Shown: positions 5,953 to 36,100, counted from the first letter of the stretch. The stretch: 64,000 nucleotides of DNA from Phoronis australis (GCA_002633005.1 NMRA01000091.1:479267-543266); one strand, 5' to 3'. Numbers and translations are program-made. The notes: generated by a model from the letters alone, not told the origin.

Positions 5953-7249
5953 TTATATTGATGATAAGGAAAATTTGCTTTTTAGATCAAAGCACTTTCT
6001 TAAGTCCTGTCTAAAGTTATTACTCATGATGAGATATACGAAAAGATTACTTATGTTGTTTACAAAATACATGAAGAAAATGCATTGGCTTTCAGGAATT
6101 ACTTCAAATATGACTAACGAAGGAGGCAGGAAACTGAGAATAAAGATCACATGGATAATAAAAAACATGAGTGCCAGTTTAGAGCTTGTTGCATCACCAC
6201 TTCTTTTTGAATTATCCACAGATAACCTGCTGCGTTTTATTTTGTAGTAGGCACTCTGCCATTTGGTTGACGTATTGGACATATCTCCTGATGTCGAATG
6301 ATCTTCAACTAGTGTATTCGCATCATCATTGATTTCGCAAAATTTGGTCTCCTTTATTTCGGATCTTTTTGTGTATTTCTGGCGAAATTTCTCTTGCCGC
6401 TTCACTGTACACAACATGACTATGTAGACAACAAGGGCAACTAGTCCAGCCAACCAGAAGGTGGCGTTGTGCACATACCTAGAAGGGAACAAAAGGCAAA
6501 TTTATGGTTCCGTGTGTTCATTCCAACTATTATAATTGGCCTGATTTAAGTTAAGTATCTCAGTTTGTTAAAGCCAAAATGTGCAACTAGTAAACAAATT
6601 TTACTTACTGGTAATATGTTATGAATATTTCGTCTGTTGTGTTGTTAATAAGCTCACACTTGTATGAGGAAGGATTATAGTGGTAGACTCTAGACACAGC
6701 AATTCCGTACATGCTAGAAATGAACATCAATATGCCAATTGCTATCTTCGCTTTTCTTTTCCCGAATCTTTGCATATGGAAGAATGGTTGACATACAAAC
6801 AAATATCTGTCAATAGATATGGCGGCCATCATGAATGTTGACGCCATCGGTCCCACCGAATTAAGGAAGTATTCAATCTTGCAGAATATGTCGTAGCCCT
6901 GTCCTATACTGTCATATAAGGTGGCCATGTGCATCTCGAAAAACAAACAGGGAATTGTCACTCCGCAGGTCAATAAGTCGATGAATGCCAATGCATTTAT
7001 AAACACTGTCACTGTCAGGTTGTCTCTTTTCTTTGTATAAACTGTCAGTATAAGTATGTTTCCAATGACACCAACCACAACAAAGATGCCCAGCATGATA
7101 TGTACACCTATTGTCTCTGAAGTCCACGTTGGGCTAGTCACATTACTTAAATTTGCACCTATTGCCTCAGAAGTCCATGTTTGGCTGGTCTCATTACTTA
7201 ATTCCGCACCTACTGTTTCTGGAATCTGTGACGGTTTTGAACAATTCAT
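5953..7249 (-). CDS. Orphan class A (rhodopsin-like) GPCR, 2 exons, 388 aa
   Basis: Exon 1 7249-6609 and exon 2 6478-5953 are joined by a 130-nt phase-2 intron (CA|GTAAGT ... TTCCCTTCTAG|G), restoring ...ITYYQYVHNATFW.... Motifs: TM1 GN, TM2 LAFIDL, TM3 CKI...ISIDRY..VCQP, ECL2 Cys, TM6 FILSFLP, TM7 NNISNLFVY, helix 8 NFRQDL. N-glycosylation sequons in the N-terminus. Confidence 0.9.
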
Positions 7250-8899
7250 CTTTAGGTTAGGCTATAATCCTTAATTGATAAAATCAACCAACATAATATA
7301 CACATCCATTGTCTCTAGAGTCTAGCCGCTGTAGTGTCATTAGCCTAATCCAAAGAGTTATTCACGTTTTTCATTCTTCATTGAGGCAATCCTTAACTGG
7401 TCAGCAAGCTATGTCTTCCAGTCATTCCTTCCCGTTCGTACTGAAAGGAAGTGCCGTGAATGTTAGTGGGCTGAGAATACGTTACTAGTTATATCGTTTG
7501 ACGCTCATTACCGGCAAGTTCCATTTTACACAATTAAGTAACATAGACTAATTAGTCCCGAGTGATGGAAATGATACTGATCCATTACTACTCTTTCAGA
7601 ATCCAGATTTGTGATTTTCGGAAAATATTTGGCATGCCAATACTTTTATGTACTCATAACAAGTGTACGTAATAACAGGGATGTCATTGAATAGATTGCG
7701 ATTCTTTGTTTCGCGAAGCCTGGCTGCTTATGAACTATGAACAAATTAGAAGTGTCCAAAATAGGTTTTAATTATATGCCTTTCGCACATATACACTCTG
7801 TTAATTAAGCTTAGTATTTTGCATAAATATCATACCTACTAATACACTGAATGGGATTTAAAAACAGATTTTAAGACAATCTATTTCAAAAAGCTTATAA
7901 GGTTTTCAGTGTTTATTAACCAATTACTAATCAATATAGTGAGTCCGTCACTGAGTCTTAAAATTTTAAAGATGCATTTGCATGCTCCTAACTACGTAAT
8001 GTATAGCAGGAACTAAACGGCAATGCTATTTGAACATCATCTACGCTAAACAAAGTGCAATTGTATTCATTGACAAATAAACTTGTAAATGTGAAAACAA
8101 AAAGTTCTGAAAACAGGTGACCTTTGCACTAAGGATGTATCTTGGGAGCTGCGTGGTGCAGTGTTATTCCTCTACACGGCATCACGATACTTACTGGACA
8201 TGGTTGAGTGAATTTACGGTGGTTCATTTTTGACACAAAACTTGTTCTTAAAAAGATTTGGCAATTTTCAAGGTACTTCATATTTACATTGCCGTTATAT
8301 GTTGTGTGTCTAATTTAACCAAGCAATCACAGAGATATGGAAATAGCGGGCAAGGTCCTCTTTAAATAATAATTGGATTTCCAAGATGAACACAATATAG
8401 TACTTTGAAAACCCTATAACTTAGTACTTGCAACTGCTAACCTGTGCTCTTTTTGGGAACTAACTATAATAGAATACTCTGTTTTTGGACATCATGCATG
8501 AATTCAAAAATTGCACCACATTGCTGTTCAAAGTGAGTTTACGAATAGTATACCTGAAGGCCACATCGTTCAGTTGACGGTTATTTACCTTATAGAGTTT
8601 TGCAAAAATAAAAATTAAAAGAATATCTCATTCATTAATAGAACCAAAATATTTTATGAAAAAACTGAGCAACTGTGGAGGTGTTTTCTGAGTTATGTAA
8701 TTTTGTTCAGTTTTGCATTATTGATTCGTGCCTCCTGATCACTGATTATGGCTCTTTAAACAGATAGTTTTCGCAGAAGTGAACTAACTCTGGTTTTAAT
8801 TAGGCAAGATTTACTTGTTTGTGCCACATGTTTACTAGCAGTTATGACTTGATTGATCCAACCTAAGTGAAGCCAAGCCAATTATAGAGCAACTTCTAG

Positions 8900-22520: not shown

Positions 22521-22819
22521 ATATTTCTATTCACTATACATATATGATAGTTGGAGTTAATAAACTTTGTGTGTCAGTAGAAACTTAACGACTGTGTTTG
22601 TTTTTATGCTGCTCTCCATCAACTTGCAGTGGCTACCTTGTTAGCCAACTATCTATTTACCGTTCAACCAAGAACTGGGTAACCCAACAACACTACAGAT
22701 GTCTGCCTCTGTTGTTTTCAACATATCTCTCACAGAGAGAGAGTAGTAGTATATCAGCAAAATGCCCATCACACCTCTGTTGTCTTCAACACATCTCTCT
22801 TAAGACAACACATCTCTCA

Positions 22820-22907
22820 CAGAGAGAGAGAGAGTGAGGGAGAGAGAGAGGGAGTGAGGGAGGGAGGGAGAGAGAGTAGTAGTAGTATTAGTAGTAGTGG
22901 TAGTAGT

Positions 22908-22982
<75 letters not shown>

Positions 22983-22983
22983 C
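22820..22983. repeat. Compound microsatellite (GA)n-(AGT)n-(AGC)22
   Basis: Read directly from the sequence; pure AGC run 22908-22973. Confidence 0.97.
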
Positions 22984-23003
22984 GTATGTCAGCAAAATGC
23001 CCA

Positions 23004-26000
23004 TCACGCCTCTGTTGTCTTCAACATATCTCTCACAGACTGAGGCAGCATACACATGGACCCTGGTTTGACTCTCTCAGTCACCCGAAAAACAAAACCT
23101 TCCTGTCCCTCGAGAATAGTTCTCTCTTTATTCCAGTCGAACAGAGCACCATCCGTTGTCTCCAGAAAAGGATTGATCTCGATGACCCAAATCTTATCAT
23201 CTGAAAAAGAGTTCTTACAATGCAGGCCAAAATAATAGGACAAAATACCACTTCTTCATCGTGATGGGTAACGATGGGTAACGACTTGTCATATCTAGCT
23301 ACCCTGATGGTGTATTCCACTTACACTCAGTCGTCACAGCGCACAATTCTGGGTAATCTAAATTTGATTATTCTCGGCATGTTCAATTACTTACTTATGA
23401 GTGGGTAAAATATGGACAATGATAATAAACACTGGCTGCCTACCAAGACAATTTTATGTCACCACGCCATGTGCAGCATTGAATTAGATGCTGTGTCATG
23501 GATCACAGCATATTTCAAATTTGAAAAAAATTATCAAGTCATTTTACAAATAAAGTAAACATGAATACATCTCACTAAAAACATGAAATGTAAAAGGACA
23601 TGGATAACAATGCATCATTTTTGATCTTTCATTTCAATACAAATTGAATAATTGAAACATGCAATAAATACCAGCGTGGCTTGCACATCTAAGTCAAGTG
23701 CAAAGATCCTTCTTTAGGCTGCTTGTACAAACAAATCAGTGAATTCTCGTCAAACATGATGGTGATGCAGAAAAAATATGCAAAAGGGATTTCGCCAAAC
23801 AGACTAAGTCTTAGCATTGTGCGATTTGATCAAAGCAGCATACTTCTGGTTTGAAAAACTCATTTTCATGATTTGTTTATGAAAACGACGGAAAATGTTC
23901 GATGTAAACAATGTAACTCACACAGCCAAATTGACCAAAAATGTCTTCAAAAATGTAACAGTCCCTTAATTGTCAGTTGTCGTCTGCGTTAGCTAGACTG
24001 TGTAAATAGACTCTCCCACTTGGAATAGTTTGTCTGATTCTCAATGGGGATGCACATTGTTTCTTCACTCAACAAGACTGATATTAGCTCTCGCAAACAA
24101 CTCGAAGATGAAAAAAGACTAGACAGTTAAGATTATTACACAGTTGAAGAAAAAAGAAGATTATTAACTTTTGCAGCAACAAGTACTGCAGTTCTTACCA
24201 CAAACTGCAAAATCTATCACATAGTTCTTGACGAAAGTCCCAGCCAGCATCCTGTGTTTGACTTCCTTCTGGAAATAGTCTTTTATCCTTCCACACAGCT
24301 CCTGTTTACAAGCCACCAGCTTTTCTGAGTGTATAAGATAGTTGTACTGTGACAGAGCTGTTAAATCACCCTGGAAAATAAAGCAGTGCTAACCAAACAT
24401 TGATTCTAACTTCAACTAAGTTTTGAACACAAACAACCGTAATGTATGGAGATTGGGCTAGGCTTGAACACAATGAATGTGCAAGCCATTTTCCGCATGT
24501 GCACATCCAAGCTTAAGTATGGATTGGCATTTGAAAAGCAAACAAGATGAATGTCTATTTGATGCACATATTCACTTTTTAGGTCCACACAACACCAATG
24601 ATGTGAAGCAAAAATCGCAAACTTGAAACTAAGATTTAAAGGAAATTAGCGGTTGCGAATCACCCCACTGTCAAGTGAACTCCATTAGGTCCATGGTTTT
24701 ATTATGTACAATTAAGAATACTAGATTGCTGCATTTAAGAACCAAATCAAAGGGTTTCATCCCAAAACATGAGTCAAAGCCAAACTTTCAAAGATGACAG
24801 TGCATCACTTTCCTCTAAGTCTAAAGCTTCCTCTTTATTACGCCAACAGCAATGTGTGACACAGGCAGCACACTCGTCAACGTGACTTTGATGCCATTTT
24901 CAAGATCATAGCCAGAAAATCATGTTTAACTTGGGAACCTATTGTTGGCATATTATCGTAAGAGATTTTCAGGTTTTGTTCAAGTTTTGTAGCGAGGTGT
25001 GGCTGGGACATCTTCAGGTGACAGTCATATTCGACCACTTTGACTCGAAATCGTAGTGAGAAATGTTGAAGCTGCATCACATCAAACACTGCATAAAAGC
25101 TCATTGTTTAAAGCAAATGTTGTTCCTATGAAAATTTTGAAATTTAGTGTTTATTTTCAGATGGAAATAAAGTGTTGCATAGATTATCTTCACACACAGA
25201 TGTTCTATAGTGTTAAAGATGTATGCATATAATCCCAAGGTGGCCAAGGACATTTTTCATCACTGTGTGACAAATGCTTGTTGAATTTGACTTGGCTACA
25301 GCTTGACAACAATGCATAATGTTATATATTCACACTGACACTTGAAGAACAATTTTGCCACAATTGATTTTCCAAAGGATGTTGTCAATAGACCACTTTC
25401 CAAAAATGTTCAGAGGTATTCTTGCAATCTCTGCAAATCACAAAATCAGATAAATCGATCAGTATGGCTTGTAAAGCAAAAAACTGTACATAACAAATAG
25501 CTCGTTTTGAAAATCAAATTCACTCCGTACAACTGTGGTACTACGCGTTTGTCCAACACAGATTATTTCAAGGGCCCCCTATTATATCAAAAAATGCAAA
25601 TGGGTTTCAAACACATGTCCCATACTCAAAAACTTCATAACAACACAGGGTCACTAGTGGAAGCTCACCTCATACACAAATCCACGAAATTCCATATCCA
25701 CGTCAATGTGAACAAACTTCCTGATCACAAAATGTTCATTAAACCGCTCTTTACATTTTGTCGCTAACAACATGTCTTGATAAATCCGCTCACTTCTCAC
25801 AAACATTTCAATTACTTCAGTGGCATTCTTTACCTTCTGTGCTTGAAAACCAGCTCTTAAAAGACAAGTTATTTTAACATTCTCAGAGATTCTAACTTCA
25901 TGTGGATAATTGTCAAGTTCAGACAGATACAACTGTTTAAAACGTTCTTGAACAAGAGGGGCGTCCTTAGCACTTCTTGAAGATGTTTTAACGAAGCCAT

Positions 26001-26382
26001 AACCACCGTGGAGAAAGTCAACCATGGTTTTCTCCAATTTATCAGTCAAGTTCTGAATTGCTTCCAGAGTTGAACTATCAATACATTCCCTCCATTTAAT
26101 AATAGCAATATTGCTGGAGTCTTTGTCTTTAAACAACTTCTCGTATATCTTCACAAAAAGAGCACTCTCCTCATAAGAAATTGGGCAGAATGCTGTAGGA
26201 AAAGACAGCTCTGCTAAAGAGTCTAACCATTCCTCTGTGTTGACATCCAATACGGCATTTTGGTACGTTGAAATAGCTTCTTGACTCAAAAATCCGTCAA
26301 GTTTAGGAGCCGATTTGTCTTTGGACGTATCTTCAATAGGCTTCAAGGTGACTGATTTCAAGGCTTCTGCTAATGAGCTCAT
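23004..26382 (-). CDS. CDC123/D123-like (R2K-type) ATP-grasp protein, non-canonical, with an N-terminal WH2-like motif; 3 coding exons, 360 aa
   Basis: Exons 26382-25669 (ATG 13 nt after a TTTCAG acceptor; donor GTGAGC), 24370-24199 (GDLTALSQYNY...YVIDFAVC; donor GTAAGA) and 23200-23004 (DDKIWVIEINPFLETTDGALFDW...). They total 1083 nt in frame. Motifs GFVKTSSRSAKD, RSERI, DMEFRGFV, LSQY, YVIDF, VIEINPF and TDGALFDW parallel the Cdc123 motifs PKLNWSAPxD, EFRCFV, ISQR, IDxNP and TDxLLFxW. Confidence 0.85.
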
Positions 26383-27345
26383 AGTTGTAGCGATACTGAA
26401 AGACAAAAGACCACATGACGTAAACATCTCCTTTAAAGCAGATAAGGATCGATTTGGAGAAATGTTTTGAATTTCTCCCATGTCCCACCCCCCACCCTCA
26501 TCATTTGGTCGCATAATGACGGTGAATTGCCATCTATTACATCTTGAAAGCATCCAGGCTCTATTTTTCCATTCTCTTTTTGGGACATGAAAACTGATGG
26601 AAACTATGGAGGAGTGGCAAACATTAGACTGTGCGAGGTTCTCGAATTTTCAAAATTGGTCAGGTAATAGCGATTTTGTAGTTTGCAACATGTCTTATAT
26701 TCTAATTTACTGCACCTTTGCCTGAAAGAATGTGGATGAAGCTGGTCCTGATCCAATATTCTAGTAAAAAGGAATTGTTCACAACATGATATAACATGAA
26801 GCTCAGGTGTCATATTGTTAATTTGCCCAAACCTGTAATAATTAACAAGTTGTAAATCTGAATAATAGTTTTATTTAATCTAACCAACTTTGATAAGAAA
26901 TTTGAAACTAAAATAGTAGTATGACTTAGGGTATTCATAAACATAATACTCTTCACTGTTGTTAATGCAGACACTAACCGAACGTCTAAGACCAGTAATC
27001 ATAATGATGACAAATGGGTGTCAAAAGATCATGACCCACCAGCTTCAGGCAAGACTATTAAGGAAAGAACTAAAATTTCCCCAAGGCTAATTGCATTAAA
27101 TGGTCTACAATCATTTTTGAAATTCATTACCAAGTGCCTCCTAAATACCACAGGCATGCACCTTTATTGATCAGTCGCTTGTATGAGACAATCAGGGAGC
27201 ACTTGATGATGGGAGATATAGGCTACAGCAGAACGAGATGCATTTGAATCAAGGACACTGTGATGGTCTGTACCAAACCCACGATAAGTGGAAGCCTAGC
27301 GTACAGTTATAGACAATACCACCATGCAAACCATGCTCTGAACAG

Positions 27346-27406: not shown

Positions 27407-27594
27407 TCACATACCGACCTGTCTCCTTGACACTGTCGTAGACCAAGTAGGTTTTAACAAGTTTTCAATCTATTTTGAACTTCCCACCGGCGGAACTACG
27501 ATAAGTAAGAAGAGGGACCCAGTCGCTATATTCTATGAATGTTGTTAACACAAAAAGCTCAGAAATAATCTGATCTTTTAAAACTTTGTTTTAA

Positions 27595-27735
27595 CAGACC
27601 TGTGTGTACTTCGAGAGAATCGCTTAGTCCACCACTAGATGTCGCGCGCACCGACACAGGATTTTAAACAGTGTCAAGGTCAGCCATCTGCTAGCAGCTT
27701 GCACCGGTTGTGTTCTTTCTTTGTATGGCGTAAGT
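27595..27735. promoter_or_regulatory. Putative bidirectional promoter with divergent non-coding first exons (CDC123-like gene / ABCB6)
   Basis: Both genes have their ATG exon preceded by a splice acceptor (26396-26397 on minus, ~30117-30118 on plus), so each needs an upstream exon. A plus-strand donor GTAAGT at 27730 and a weaker minus-strand AG|GTCTGT at ~27599 flank a CpG-rich core (GTCGCGCGCACCG, 27641). Confidence 0.5.
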
Positions 27736-28859
27736 TAGAATTAGTTTCAGAATTCATGACTTATTTTTTGGCAATGTTCTATGTTTACTGGGAAATTTTC
27801 CCATATATTGTTAATTTCCAGTAGTTTAACCTTTGTTTGTCGAGTGAAAATCACATTGTCACTGTGTCAGTGTCAGTGAATCCAGGCATCGCAATCACAT
27901 CATCAAATTCAAAACGTCATTGTGCCTTAGTAGTTTTGTGGTTATGTAATTTACTAAATCTCTAAAAGTCTTAGAATAAGGTGATTCTCGGACAAAACCA
28001 AACAACCTTTTATTTTGAACTCGAGAAAGCTTGATAATATGAAGAAAAGTAGCAGGAAAGGAATTTAACCATTTTAGAAACTCATATGGCACTGAGAATA
28101 TGACTGAGATCAGAAGTCAAGCCAAAGCCAAAGCCAGTGAAGGATGACTTGCAAAATTTCAACAGAAAATCTAACTTTTGGTATTTATGCCTTGCCTTGT
28201 CAAGTAATCCCCCTGTTACCATACTATTCAGAGTTGCGGTTCAGGTATCCAGCCAGAGCTAGATTTATGTGGATTAAACCATTAAAATGCAGCAAAGGAA
28301 CAATTCAATCGCATGTAGATTTTAGACCTTTGAGCAGAAATTCACACCGCTTGGATTAAGTTCTGCACATCACCTCATTGTGAAACTTATTTGTTAAACC
28401 CCAGAGTGGATGGGTACATGCAATATCTAAACGTCAACCAACACTCGGCCGTTAAAGTGGAAAACATTCTAGCAAACGTTGTTTTCTTGCATCTTTCTCT
28501 TTTATGGCTTTACAACGAAGCAAAGTGTGTCGTCAACTTGAAAACTACGCTCATGTCGTGCGTACGTGCCATTTGCTCCATTTTTTGCAATACGTTGGGA
28601 GCTGATGACAACTTTTCTAATTTAGTTTGCGTTGGTTAAAAATGAAAAGAAATCAATTTCTAAAATAGTTGACAATCCTTTTTCGCTGTAAGCCAACACA
28701 CATTATTATTTCACCCTTTAGTTAGAAGAATACTGATGTGTTTTATTTTAGCACCCATAACTTATTTGCTTTACTGCAAGAAGAAGGGCTGTTTATATGA
28801 CATTGATTTTGGGCCAGATTTTTTGCCATTTTTTACTCAACAAATGGGGTACCGATTGC

Positions 28860-29850
28860 AGTCAGTCATCTCTTTCCAGGCATTATGTATCTTGTGAATG
28901 CCTTGCAGGATCTTAAGGAGATTTGGCAGATATATTCTAATAAAGTTGTCAATAGATGGTGACTAGTTTCGAACTGATGCGATTACTGCTCTCCCCACTT
29001 GTGGCAATTTTGTTATTTTACTTTTGCACCTGTATCTTTGGAATTCCTTGATGCATGTTCATGAAATTTAGCTGATCTAGGTTTTTGTTAAGTAGATGAA
29101 GATGTTATTTCATTTTCAGAGGTATTTGATGCTTTCACACCACCTAGTGGCCATTTTTGGTGTTTTTGACGTCTACCTCTCTAGCCTTACGAATTATTAT
29201 GAAAATTTACAGATGTGTTTCTGATGAGAAGGCAAGAGCTGAAATTGATTTTCTGACTGCTCCAATAACTGTGGCATACCTTATTGACGATTTTTTTCGT
29301 CCCTATATAGGTGCCTATGAAGCTGACAACAGAGGACGAGTTCTAGACTGATCTGACTACTGCTGTGCCCTCCCCCCCCCCGACAAATATTTTTTTTGCA
29401 CCTGCCAGTGGAGTTCGTTAGTGGATTTTCATGAAATTTGGCAAATAAGTTTAAAAAAATAGACGAATATGCGTTTCCACTTTGGGACATATTTGATGTA
29501 TTTTGCTCCATCTTGAATCCATTTTTATTATTAGTTTGCTGTTTTTTGTCATTTATGTCTTTATTTGCTGAACTTCTCAAAGGATTATGAAAATTGGCAG
29601 ATATGTTCCTGATAAGAAATCACGGCTGATGTTGATTTGTAGACAGGTGTATCTGTTGCATCTGCAGGTGTTTCTCCTAAGTCCTTAGAAGGATCTTTAT
29701 AAAATTTGGCTAGTGTTTTCCTAGGAATTTGTCAAAGACTGACCATGACATTTGGACAAATCTGATTACCACTATGCGCCCTAGTGGCAATTTTAGCTTT
29801 TACATTTACTCAGTCATCAGTGTTACCAAATACATTTCTATTGAGGAGAC
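28860..29850 (+). mobile_element. Degenerate HINE-like core-repeat array in the presumed ABCB6 first intron
   Basis: Core motifs CTCCCCACTTGTGGCAA (~28990), CACCACCTAGTGGCCA (~29138) and GCGCCCTAGTGGCAA (~29775), plus the shared ATGAAATTTGGCA and TGTATCT segments. Confidence 0.5.
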
Positions 29851-30178
29851 GTCAGCTTCATTCCTTGCAAAATTTCTGTTGGTAGCCATCTTGTTCTCAA
29901 AACAATGCCAATGTATTGTATTATGTCATGTCATTCTACTGTAATCATTTCATACGAGATTGAGTGATACACATCAGTCCAAAAGTAAAATAGTTGACCA
30001 CAACGCAGCACCATCATGCACCGCCTCATGCCTGTGGTGCTTAAGGGAGGTTATTGCCTATAATTATTATAATTTTGATTCATTGCCGGTTAGTAACCTA
30101 TCTTTAATTATATTTCAGAGAACTGGTTCGGCAACGGTCAAAAGGTTACATATAGGATTCGCATCATTGAATACCAAA

Positions 30179-33100
30179 ATGCGTTTTTGTGAAGCCAATG
30201 AAACTTTTTCACCAGAATGGATAAACAATGGACTCACTCATTGTTTCATGGACACTGTCACGTCTGGCATTCTGTTCACTCTTGTAACGATATTTGGGGT
30301 CATCCAGTGCATGTATTATGCCGGCAATGCATTTCCCGTACCGGCTGATTTGCGGCCAAAGAGTTTCTTTTTTCAACTTCAAGTTCTATTTACAATTTTG
30401 ATGCCTTTGATCTATGTAACACATCTGGTACTCAAATATACTGTGTATGAGGACAGTAGTACTTATATCTACCAGATTCTCTCGTGGTGCTTTTCAATTT
30501 TGGCATGGCCAATTTCTTTGCTAATGATTCGACTCGAGAGGCAGAAATCTTTGGAGATGGACCACAGGCGCCATGGCTTAGTGCTTTTGCTGTTCTGGAC
30601 TTTGGCATTTGTGAGTGAAAATCTGGCATTTATATCCTACTCGAGCCCAACTTGGTTTTGGAAGTTAAACAGGTATGTAGTAGTGTCAGATGTTTATGGC
30701 GTCTGTTAAGCAGATTTTTTCTGTTTAGAAACCCAATGTGCTGAGTTATTGTTAAACGCTGTAAGGATTAAAATTCTTCATTTTAAGTGAATTTTGTAGT
30801 CTAAATATTCATCAGTAGTCCTGTGTTGTACACTGAATAATTAATAAATTATGTTTATTCTAAGTATGATGTCTGAAGAATTGGAACTTGTTTTAAAGAT
30901 AAGTTCCAACTGTCTTTTAGAGTCCATGGTTAGAATTTAGTACAGGATAAGGAACGCAGTGTTTATGATTTTGCCAATTTTGCTGGTACGCTTTGGAAAA
31001 AGAGACAGAATAAGTGGTTTTTAGTTTTTGTTTTAAGTTTCTTTTAAGCCCGTAAAAAGCTTGTAACATCTTGGTCTTACTTCTAGTTTCAAAATTTAGT
31101 AACAAAAATGTGCTTGTGAAATTTAAACTGATGTACTAACCGTGGAATCTGCATTTGAATTTTCTTACAGCACTAGAGATCGGATTGAATTTGGATTTTG
31201 GGTTGGTCGATACGTGCTGACTTTCTTCCTGCTATTGTTGGGGTTCAAAGCTGCTGGCCTAAATACAGTGATGCCGCAATTGTATGTGAATGCTGAAGAT
31301 GGGGTGGTCGATGTCCCCCAGGATCAGGTAGGATTGGTAGTGGAGCAGCAAAGGGGATGGAGTTCGACGTGCTTGAATACTGCCCCAAAACGTTGACTGA
31401 AAAGTGCTTACAAAAGTGCAATCAAAGCCACTGTAAACCATGTTTTGAGAAAAAAAACATCACATCGTTCTTATACTTGGTTAATATAAATTGTCTGGAA
31501 TCTCTGATGGAAAATGTATTTCCAAGATAACCAGATATCTCGATTTTTACGAAACTTATTTTAAGCTGTTGTTTTCCCCCTTTAAAATGGTCTTTGTTTA
31601 GAGCAATATCAGTTCTTCTGACCTAAGTCATTTGTAATCTGAGCGGAAAACGAGACGAGAGTGATTTTAAAGCAGAATTGTCCTTAGAAAGCGAGATGTG
31701 TTTTGAAAGAAGGCACTGGTTGATTACCCATTTTACTTGGTATTTTCTTATCAACTGATTCTATTTTCCATAGCAAGCATGTTTTCCCCTCAAAGTTCAT
31801 GGTATTCTTTCTATCTCAGAGAAATTAACCTGTTCATCTGGACTATGTTATAGTACTAAAAATCCTTAAGCCCTCAGGAGCACCGTGCTCCTTTCTTGAG
31901 GAATGATGGAGTGATTAGTGTGGTGGGCTGTTGGGTCTTCGGCAATGCTCTCACAAGATTCGATTGACAGTAGTGTTTCAAGGGACAGAGCAAACCTGCC
32001 AACCCCCATGTCTATTGAGTGACGGATTCAATGCCTTAATGAAGATGGCCTCCTTTGCGCTTCTTTCGAACCAGCTCTTGTCCCAGCTCAAAATGTCAAC
32101 ATTGTGTTTTCTATCAACAACAGGCTCTTGTGAGTGGCATCAGAGAGCAGACTGGCTCTGCCTGGTCTGACTTCTGGCACAAGTTGACTAAGCTCTGGCC
32201 TTACATGTGGCCTAAGAAGAATTTCTTCCTCCAGTGTCGCGTCGTCGTCTGTTTTCTAGTTCTCGCAGCCGGGAGAGGAGTCAATGTACTCGTGCCAATC
32301 TATTACAAAAATATAGGTAAGTGTGCGGAGGTCAGTTGGACGTCTCTGTTCTTTTGTTTTGGCAGTTTTTATTGAGTGACATTTGTGTTTACGATTAAAA
32401 TGATTTTCTTGTAATAGACGACATCTTTCAGAAGTGTGGTCATATTGTGTATACTTTGTTGGGCACACTGCTGGTAGGACTGTTGACACATTTGTGTTTC
32501 TGTAATGAGTGTTGTTTTTTTGATTTATGCATGTCAGAAGAATTATTTTAAGTTCTGAAATTGGGCGAGTATTAACGAGTGTTGAAATACTTAATGAGTT
32601 TTCCCTGACTGTTACATGAACGGGGTGGATATCAGAGGTGGTATTTATAACCTTTAAATTATTTGTGAGTTGCTGTCTCTTAGTTCCAAATTTACGATTT
32701 CTGTTTATTTAATTAATGAATTTAGTTGACCTATGATGACTCATCCAATGTTTGGGTATTGTTTGTTGCTGCAGACGTAGTGGACTTTAAATGAGGGAAG
32801 TGAAATGAAGTTTCTGTCTGGCCAAATCTTGTGATTGAGCAGCTACTTACTAGTAAATTTAAGGATGGGGTGTTTATGAATTTTTACCTGACATGTGTTG
32901 ACTCTGCAATGCTTGTGGTTTCAGTTGACAGTCTCAGCAACGCCACTGCTGTCAAGTTGTCCGAGACTAATCTTGGTGCCGTTAGCGGACAGTTTCGTGT
33001 GGACTACATTCTGATCTGGATCTTACTGAGGTTTTTACAGGGAGGCGGTTTTGGTGAGTACAGTACTTTAGTTACTGTTAAAGGATTTGTTATTCATTTG

Positions 33101-36100
33101 GAGTGCGCGAACATTCTTAAGAATAGGCTGTGGGAGTAAGACCTCATGTCTGATGACACGTTGTGAAGTAAAAATTTTCCCCAGTGTCGTTTTCTCCTTT
33201 TCTAGTGAAAATAAGGGAGATTTAGTGCGTGGCGATCTGTTATTATTCCTTGGATTCAGTCTCACACTGTTATGTAAGTACTTTCCAAGATTTGACTGAT
33301 ATTTTATCAAATTACTAGGGGTGACTAAAATTCCAGCTCTTTTCTTGTCTTAGCTCATGCTGGCAGAAATTTTTTTTAAGGATGTGACATTAAACACTAG
33401 TCATGCTTCTGTGAATTCAAGCTTCTCAGAGTTCTCTCATGCACACAAAGACACACGCTCTTGTATAGGCACACAGAGTTGCAGCTGCCCGATGTCCATT
33501 GCGAAAATGATGAGAATGGGAATCCATATTAATACGCATTTAAACCTAGATATATGATCATAGTGAAATTTTGATTGTCAATTAGCTTAGGGTACTGGTT
33601 GATATGATAATAATGCAGCTAATTTTTATTAACTGATCACATAATCCCATCGCATTCAGTTAGAACATGTGACTTCTGTGTGGCTAGAATCCCATCTGAT
33701 TGACTTGCATGGGTTTGGAACCTATCCTTTTGTTGTTGTCTGCTCTAGTTGAATAAGAGAGTTGCTGCCTTGTCATAGGCTTCATAGAGACTGCACTATC
33801 TTCCTAGATACAGTTAATTAATAGTGCAGTAGTAAGTCCCATGAACATTTTCATTTGTGTTTTGATTTCTTTTTAACGTAGCGTAACAGCAGAGTGTTAA
33901 CGAATGTGTTTTAATTTTCTTCAGGCTCCATGGGCGTGTTAAACAACTTGCGTACATTCCTGTGGATCCGAGTGCAACAGTACACTACCAGGGAGATTGA
34001 AGTTCGACTTTTTAGTCATTTGCACTCGTGAGCTTTATTCGTGTTACATAATATACATATTATACATTATACATGTGAAAGTGTATGTGAGTAGTAAGCA
34101 TTGGGCTTTGAGTGATAAGCAGACACTACCTGGTTAGTACGCCTTTCATTACAATACCAAGAATGCAAAAACCAATATCCAAAACACGTGGTTGTGAACC
34201 AAACGTCTTACCATTGGATTCAGCTTATACATTATGCATATTGGAACTTCAGGGGTCTGTTTCATGAAAACTGACTTAAGACTTTAGGCAGAATTCTGGT
34301 CGGTCTTACGCTCCTCATAACTTTTTGCGAAAAATAATAAAAACTCACTTTTCCATAAGAACAATGTATCCTAGAATATGCATATAATTACTACTTACCG
34401 AGAAAATTAGTTCAACTTATTACCTGTCCGTGATGTGCTTATTAAGTGCATGACTAAGTAGGAGCATAAGACTCCATTTCTGTCTTTTTGTCCAAAGTAA
34501 CTTTCACGAGACAGACCTATGGACTTGGGAAGAACAAATGTTTGTTGCTGAAAAGCAAACTCAATCATTTGGAATTTCATAGTCATTTTTGTGATGTGAA
34601 TCAAATGACTGTCACATACAAACTTAATGGTGTTTGAATTCTCGCACAAACTCCTGTTGTTACTTGAACCAGCTGTATTATCGATTTCAAGTCTTCTTCA
34701 GTCACCAGCTAGTAGGGGCATTTTACGATGCAATTGAAATCTTGTATGATGCTCATCAGTTTTTGTGCCGAAAAAAAAAAAAAGAAGTTTTTGTGCCGAG
34801 TAACAGCCGTTAAAAGTCCTGGATGACTTAAGCTTGCGGTGTTATTTGACTATGAATTCATGTGTTAATGCATTTTGGGGGCAACATGATGTCTTGTTGG
34901 ACATCTGTATCTCTTCAGTGTTTTCTAATTCTTAGTAGGATCATTTGATCACTCAGTGAATCACCCAGGGCTATGTTTCATGAAAAGTGACATAAGACTT
35001 CAGAAATTTGGACTTAGGCTCCCACTTAACAATTATGGACTTAAGTTTTTGCCAGATAATGTTAGCACATGGCAGTTTAGAAATAATTTATGAAAATTGT
35101 CTAAGCAACTGGCAGCTATAGGTATGTTTTCAGAGGCACTGGCTGTACTTTTAGTAAGGTGAAATAGCATTATTTTTCAGAAATTCTTGTGTGGAGAGCC
35201 AGAAGAAATTTCTGATTTATTAAGTCAATTTTCATGACACAGATCCCAGGATGCGACAAAATTGTGACAAGGTAGACTTTTGGAAAAGTATTGACTGAAG
35301 ATATTCACTGAGCTAAGTTCCTTTAGAGTTAAGCACTATTGATAGCTGTTGTTACTTTTTTACCACACTAGGCTGTCTCTGCGCTGGCACTTGGGACGTA
35401 AAACGGGTGAGGTCCTGCGAGTTATGGACAGAGGAACTACCAGTATCAATAATTTGCTTAGGTGAGAATACTCATCGACTCTCAGTTGAAATTATATCCT
35501 GGTGTGAACCTACCTTCTGTCAAAAAGTACCAGTGTGTATTGGGGCTCGCGTGCCTATGTCCGAAATGATGTTTTTTTTTCAAAAAACAACTACTCTTTC
35601 GCGTGGTTTGCATGTAGGTGCATGTGCGTAAATTTCATTTAGAAGCGCATGTGACTTTCTGGTATAAGCGTTTTGTGTGTTTCTTGTCTGCTTGGTATTT
35701 TTCATTTAAAGCTGCATTTTGCCCTGTTTAGCAGGTTTAAAAATGAATTCGGCCTTTTGCTCTCACTATTAAAATCAGTATGTTATCAACTCAAGTAATA
35801 GGCATTTCGTACATGCGCCATTTTTCAAATTGGTAACCACTGATTTTAAAATACTTATTTCGATTTTTTGTTTTTTAGCCTGCTAAACGGGGCGAAATGA
35901 ATCTTTAATAGGTGATGTTCAACTGAATACACTTCAACCATTTTGTATCAAATAAGCTAAGTTTTTATGACATAATGTTTCGGGAATTGCACGATTAACT
36001 GGTAAAATGTACCTTCTCGCTCAAAAAGATTAATTCCAGCCTAGTAGGGTAACGTTTTGGCCCACTCTATGTGGTATGACAGGACATGCCATTAAGAACA

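Follow-up and report, generated by a model that had tools for sequence, protein, structure and literature searches.

A WH2-like motif joined to a non-classical CDC123-family ATP-grasp protein in Phoronis australis, a candidate actin-directed ligase

The gene and its surroundings

We analysed a stretch of 64,000 nucleotides of Phoronis australis DNA (NMRA01000091.1:479267-543266), hereafter the window. Its minus strand carries a gene with one non-coding and three coding exons:

27600..27885, minus strand: 5' non-coding exon, with an RNA joint to 26395, sense depth over 27576-27885 and a GT donor; the 5' end is approximate
25669..26395, minus strand: first coding exon, with 13 nt of 5' UTR, the ATG at 26382 and residues 1-238
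24199..24370, minus strand: second coding exon, carrying SQYNY and the catalytic D291
23004..23200, minus strand: third coding exon, carrying E303-I-N305 and the stop codon

The gene had been proposed, in a sequence-only reading, as an intact spliced frame of 360 residues. RNA reads with the same species label bear this out. The exons have GT..AG ends and both coding introns are found in the reads: the joint 23200/24199 in nine reads from two of the four runs, and the joint 24369/25668 in nine reads from three of the four. Sense-strand RNA depth is confined to exons. The frame starts MSSLAEALKSVTLKPIEDTSKDKSAPKLD, with residues 1-29 at 26382-26296 (minus strand). The earlier reading overlooked the leader exon, whose end at 27600 is spliced to the acceptor at 26395 in two reads of a single run (X3). 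Sixteen codons ahead of the ATG, this exon interrupts the frame with a stop, and no Met codon intervenes; the sense depth in run X3 drops from 6.7 to 0.06 across the acceptor. Hence, the N-terminus is as first read, and transcripts with another one, which had been named as a possible objection, did not appear. A different N-terminus provided by an upstream coding exon is ruled out by the leader-exon joint, the in-frame stop and the drop in depth. Of the coding differences in run X3, 9/15 are synonymous versus 21% expected (p = 0.001). Splicing, the open frame and this synonymous excess rule out a pseudogene, and the gene is confirmed as real.

Several features surround the gene. Its last codons and stop are duplicated downstream, in a 58-nt copy (22742-22799, 93%) and a 37-nt copy (22705-22741, 92%); the copies of the gene end (window 22705-23044) are set apart by TAG/CAG and GA microsatellites. 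At the other extremity, an AC repeat closes the leader exon (27600-27610); it appears to be longer by two units in the run X3 reads that cover the junction, which is consistent with a non-coding exon. Opposite-strand RNA depth starts at about 27640 (27640-28400) and overlaps the leader exon. On the plus strand, an ABC transporter with an MTABC_N domain is encoded from 29945 onward (29945-33139), and the arrangement is probably a head-to-head promoter. The interval 29138-29452 attracts hundreds of partly mapped reads, with joints jumping back by about 302 bases; it is most likely a repeat transcribed elsewhere. Further away, a rhodopsin-family GPCR gene occupies 5953-7261 on the minus strand; like the tree position given below, it agrees with an animal origin of the DNA.

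A non-classical CDC123 enzyme with a WH2-like N-terminus

The following elements of the protein are used below (residue numbers are those of the window protein):

26296..26382, minus strand: WH2-like motif, residues 1-29 (helix L4-L8, L13-K14, D22-x-S24-x-P26)
25966..25989, minus strand: R2K loop K132-TSS-R136-SA-K139, placed by alignment to 8phd (human CDC123 K104 to R111)
25774..25794, minus strand: SERIYQD motif with the invariant R199 and D203, a predicted actin contact
25684..25692, minus strand: E231-F-R233, the ExR of peptide-bond-forming ATP-grasp enzymes
23043..23075, minus strand: C-terminal segment R338-P348, whose ortholog counterpart has the lowest-error contacts with actin subdomain 1 in the predicted complex

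The assignment of the enzyme to a non-canonical branch of the CDC123/R2K proteins was upheld by Pfam D123 matches in orthologs, by a Cdc123 fold match and by the alignment to human CDC123. Of 539 candidates from a search with exon 1, 202 are relatives; in the best 120 of these, the named proteins belong to a brachiopod, molluscs, the annelid Owenia and rotifers, and carry the labels CDC123-like or uncharacterised. All three exons in the window match Pfam D123, each below the cut-off when taken alone, and the cut-off is passed by all 27 longer orthologs scanned, ahead of R2K_2 and R2K_3. The direct search of the PDB with exon 1 gave no match. The monomer model of the Lingula ortholog (pLDDT 90.9), compared with 48,161 chains, retrieved Cdc123 (4zgo; Z 23.5, rmsd 2.2, 237 aligned residues, 23% identity), followed by other ATP-grasp ligases at Z of at most 8.8. 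The model of the window exon 1 had Cdc123 chains at ranks 1-10, and only D123 clusters were among the top matches of the atlas search.

The residues that define the R2K clade are present. The Lys in RAGNYA strand 2 and the second Lys/Arg in the next loop are K132 and K139, aligned with human K104 and R111, and the ExR, catalytic Asp and ExN of the kinase-like domain are E231-F-R233, D291 and E303-I-N305. Judged from the sequence, the catalytic residues are intact. R136 (100%) and K139 (99%) are conserved in near and distant sets alike and, more broadly, R136, K139, R199, D203, E231 and R233 are each conserved at 99-100% among 83 near and 105 distant relatives. R136 and R199 align with a Ser and a Phe of human CDC123.

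The protein shares with classical CDC123/D123 (R2K.1; 8phd, 4zgn, 4zgo) the fold, the K..K/R loop spacing, the ExR, the D and the ExN-type motif. It differs by an identity of only about 16-23%, by KTSSRSAKD in place of KLNWSAPRD, by SERIYQD in place of SSDFITRD and by a 35-residue N-terminal addition; the classical partner is eIF2-gamma. We took as classical those proteins with the pocket motif NWSAP[RK]D including A109 and no N-terminal extension. An orthologous eIF2 assembly factor is thus rejected, on the pocket motif (TSSRSAKD versus LNWSAPRD) and the 35 extra residues. Human CDC123 starts where the motif and linker of the window protein (its first 35 residues) end in the 8phd alignment.

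None of the 23 longer or fungal relatives scanned has a GGACT or GNAT domain, and longer fused forms were absent among 3758 candidates, which is weak evidence. One of the 23 (P0202) has a dual-specificity phosphatase, together with an RRGF-type N-terminus that replaces the WH2-like motif and is common to several other relatives.

The N-terminus had been read as a WH2 motif, and this holds at the level of the family. WH2 motifs have a characteristic layout and bind in the cleft between actin subdomains 1 and 3 (PMC3298513). Residues 1-30 of the window protein have no match to Pfam WH2, and the call therefore draws on the family and not on the window sequence alone. The pattern helix-L[KR]-DxSxP, composed after the sequences had been viewed, occurs in 74 of 80 near and 45 of 81 distant N-termini, leaving out 3 near and 24 distant rows without N-terminal extension; shuffled sequences gave a mean of about 1 and maxima of 4 and 5 (n = 300). 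The motif is thus conserved in relatives. A profile of the 81 distant N-termini scores the window N-terminus at 29.7 bits, a value reached by none of 2000 shuffles.

Profile searches point to known actin binders. The best PDB match of a profile of 31 near N-termini is the actin-bound WH2 of MIM (2d1k_C, E = 0.068 among 177,635 sequences). From 143 representatives we chose 15 distant N-termini by eye, and their profile matches WIP (2a41_C, E = 3.7e-8), MIM (2.3e-7) and N-WASP (7.9e-4), with designed beta-trefoils ranking above WIP through a partial DRSxP match. Pfam WH2 (PF02205) itself matches 7 of these 15 sequences, with one passing the cut-off, and 2 of the 31 near ones, with none passing (best E = 0.0059). 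The motif resembles the long-type WH2 of WIP and MIM (2a41, 2d1k) in its short helix, LK(K) and D-x-S-x-P extension, and it is predicted to bind the subdomain 1/3 cleft. Unlike them, it is fused directly to an enzyme, has DFSSP or DKSAP in animal members and a longer spacer, and falls below the Pfam cut-off. In the window protein the spacer from L to D is two residues longer than that of WIP, and the LKPI stretch includes a Pro, its P-I occupying positions where most orthologs have K-[SVT]. Monomer models show a short helix (residues 4-9 in the window protein) and then a chain of low confidence, the picture to be expected from an unbound WH2.

Mispredicted or alternative forms of some mollusc-like and rotifer orthologs (P0022, P0024, P0041, P0097, P0100 and P0105) break just after the motif. 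This suggests that these orthologs have an intron between motif and enzyme that the window gene lacks.

The predicted complex with actin and what it may mean

As a stand-in for the window protein, we modelled the full-length Lingula ortholog, which is 56% identical to it over exon 1, in complex with an invertebrate-type actin; neither ATP nor alignments were included. The three runs gave ipSAE values of 0.70, 0.76 and 0.70 (median 0.70), against 0.01 for the best of three controls; they share at least 67% of their contacts, and the partner pLDDT is at least 83. With this tool, which is unproven on disordered chains, 51 of 78 solved microbial pairs attain the ipSAE mark that we used, as do 2 of 108 mismatched ones; for eukaryotic pairs the figures are 39 of 65 solved and 2 of 126 mismatched.

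On actin (canonical numbering), the predicted interface has three patches: the WH2 site (G23-R28, Y143, G146-T148, E167-G168, I341-T351), the D-loop and its neighbours (H40-S52, D56-E57, Q59-I64) and the flank of subdomain 1 (D80-E99, T126-N128). The side of the enzyme includes the motif (residues 2-17 and 26-30), the equivalents of the active-site positions S135-R136, E198-R199, Q202-D203, N305, E309-D312 and D317-N319, and a C-terminal part (338-349). The helix was thus found in the subdomain 1/3 cleft of the predicted complex, where the sequence-only reading had expected it, and the LK motif of the ortholog runs over actin D24-R28. Since the tool reports residues per chain and the 25 best pairs, with no pairs for the D-loop, the predicted facing of D-loop and active site is a reading of two per-chain residue lists.

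The 25 lowest-error residue pairs involve residues 318 and 341-349, outside the WH2-like motif. Complexes of WH2 with actin have been solved, and the WH2-actin patch may come from the memory of the model. In the PDB searches, the solved relatives of the enzyme were only Cdc123 alone or with eIF2-gamma. Hence, memory of WH2-actin complexes explains at most part of the interface, because the best pairs lie outside the WH2 and none of the solved relatives found is bound to actin. In distant relatives, the segment with the C-terminal contacts is poorly conserved, at 13-50% per column. Core interface residues are slightly more conserved than others (0.52 versus 0.43, p = 0.04), a difference driven by the active-site residues; among these, R136, R199 and D203 are not specific to actin, because they are also found in a bacterial relative without WH2 (L131).

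We propose that the protein is a monomer-clamping ligase which, in an ATP-dependent reaction, puts a small acyl or amino-acid group on the D-loop of actin, and we hold this to be an even bet. In the model, the WH2-like helix would dock in the subdomain 1/3 cleft, the C-terminal GxxxMLP segment would grip subdomain 1 (E83-E99, T126-N128), and actin H40-S52 and D56-I64 would face R136, R199, D203, N305 and E309-D312. By analogy with the family, ATP would make an acyl-phosphate, an amine would attack it and an isopeptide bond would result. The first candidate for the modified site is K50, whose amine would accept an activated amino acid, probably glutamate; the second is D51 or E57, as the activated carboxylate. 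With both the barbed-end cleft and the D-loop covered, the enzyme would be restricted to actin monomers, and a tag on the D-loop would likely alter polymerisation.

There are precedents for the proposed reaction. Protein-modifying ATP-grasp ligases are one, and amide ligation has been predicted for the R2K clade (PMC4431377). Another is the reactivity of actin K50 towards the bacterial toxin ACD, which makes an ATP-dependent amide bond to this residue via an acyl-phosphate (PMC3448709). Unlike the enzyme proposed here, ACD belongs to the glutamine-synthetase family (PMC2908040), has an unrelated fold and links two actins.

The same interface could serve a non-covalent role on actin, that of an ATP-driven chaperone, an assembly factor or a sequestering protein, as classical CDC123 does for eIF2-gamma. 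Classical CDC123 keeps its ATP site, yet the accessible text of PMC8844851 and PMC12860950 records only ATPase activity and assembly roles for it; the coverage of both ends of the actin monomer in our model also fits such a role. However, 188 relatives retain the invariant R136 and R199 together with the ExR and ExN, as expected for the binding of a carboxylate substrate, and the predicted D-loop contact sits at the active site. We regard a purely non-covalent role as unlikely.

Actin might also be an activator, a bait or an address, with the ligase acting there on another protein or on a small molecule. Bound actin is the cofactor or bait of several enzymes, such as YopO and the ExoY-type cyclases. 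Relatives without the motif retain the same active site, which argues that the family acts on non-actin substrates too. In the model, however, the substrate side of the active site is filled by the actin D-loop, and this alternative seems rather improbable to us.

It is very improbable that the N-terminus is merely a basic amphipathic extension of a CDC123 paralog unrelated to actin and that the complex model is a false pass: the missing Pfam match of the window motif, the 36 of 81 distant N-termini that miss the full pattern and the 2 to 5 in 100 or so false passes of complex prediction would allow it, but conservation of the motif extends across spiralians, fungi, amoebozoans and algae, and its distant members closely match WIP and MIM.

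Distribution of the family and its place among known systems

The family extends beyond animals. The protein library search returned 136 representatives at E <= 1e-30, and the family ranges over spiralians, fungi, a choanoflagellate, amoebozoans and algae. The named non-animal carriers of the motif are the choanoflagellate, a centrohelid, Anaeramoeba, Ceratiomyxa, Dracoamoeba, a haptophyte, Rhodomonas, Amorphochlora, a chytrid and basidiomycetes. Among the matches listed (the best 120 of 202 and the best 120 of 275), no name belongs to a deuterostome, an arthropod or a cnidarian.

We inferred a tree from 70 hand-chosen sequences and 305 core columns. The window protein has that of Lingula as its sister (support 0.87), and both fall within a spiralian clade (support 1.0). 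The tree includes no classical CDC123 and its deep nodes are weak, and as a consequence it does not separate vertical descent from transfer. Entamoeba, Acanthamoeba, Naegleria, Legionella and NCLDV members, none of which is among the named matches, are absent from the tree; other amoebozoans are present. In the viral collection, relatives accounted for 0 of 49 and 1 of 24 pattern matches, the one being a plasmid-like contig without the WH2-like motif, and no giant-virus relative was found there.

Burroughs et al. (2015) described a second, fast-evolving CDC123-like set in amoebae, Legionella and giant viruses, and suggested from this distribution, with no binding motif as evidence, that it may modify the actin cytoskeleton (PMC4431377). 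Both that set and the present proteins are non-classical R2K.1 paralogs. Unlike here, the accessible text of PMC4431377 describes neither a WH2 nor an animal subfamily, and neither WH2 nor any of five invertebrate genus names occurs in its one supplement text (20,031 characters). We found no report of a fusion of CDC123 with WH2 in the literature searched, whose scope left subscription journals mostly outside. The general idea that divergent CDC123 proteins may modify actin dates from 2015 (PMC4431377). The predicted placement of the D-loop is new here.

Other ATP-grasp ligases, of the TTL/TTLL, RimK and LysX/ArgX types, add amino acids to proteins (PMC4431377). They share the superfamily with the window protein (Z 8.2-8.6 for ArgX, LysX and RimK-type structures, 7.0 for TTLL11) and differ in belonging to other clades, in their substrates (tubulin and S6, and also LysW by PDB title) and in having no WH2. 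For tubulin, a modification code is set by a family of ATP-grasp ligases; we know of no endogenous equivalent for actin.

A broader claim is that there is a eukaryote-wide and so far unrecognised family of endogenous actin-modifying ligases, guided by WH2 and placing an isopeptide tag on the D-loop, in molluscs, a brachiopod, an annelid, rotifers, fungi and many protists; we give it slightly less than an even chance. If true, this would be the actin counterpart of the TTL/TTLL code of tubulin, and it would give the CDC123 clade, where the question of whether the proteins are ligases has stood since 2015, its first demonstrated ligase reaction. The WH2 motif names the subfamily's own candidate substrate, and the model points to a loop of 13 residues. 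Even if ligation were negative, there would be a widespread new candidate G-actin-binding protein, now annotated as CDC123 or as an eIF2 assembly protein.

Among prokaryote genomes, 2 of 46 candidates are relatives. One is a rotifer-like fragment of the gene (L130:4001-4486) on a contig filed in a Bacteroidetes bin, a probable contamination. The other is a bacterial R2K.1 protein of 260 residues (L131:3647-4429, L132:4659-5441), with KxSSRSxKD and SERIxxD and without the WH2-like motif. It is encoded on a mobile element, near genes that we labelled by eye, from their translations, as transposase-like and relaxase-like.
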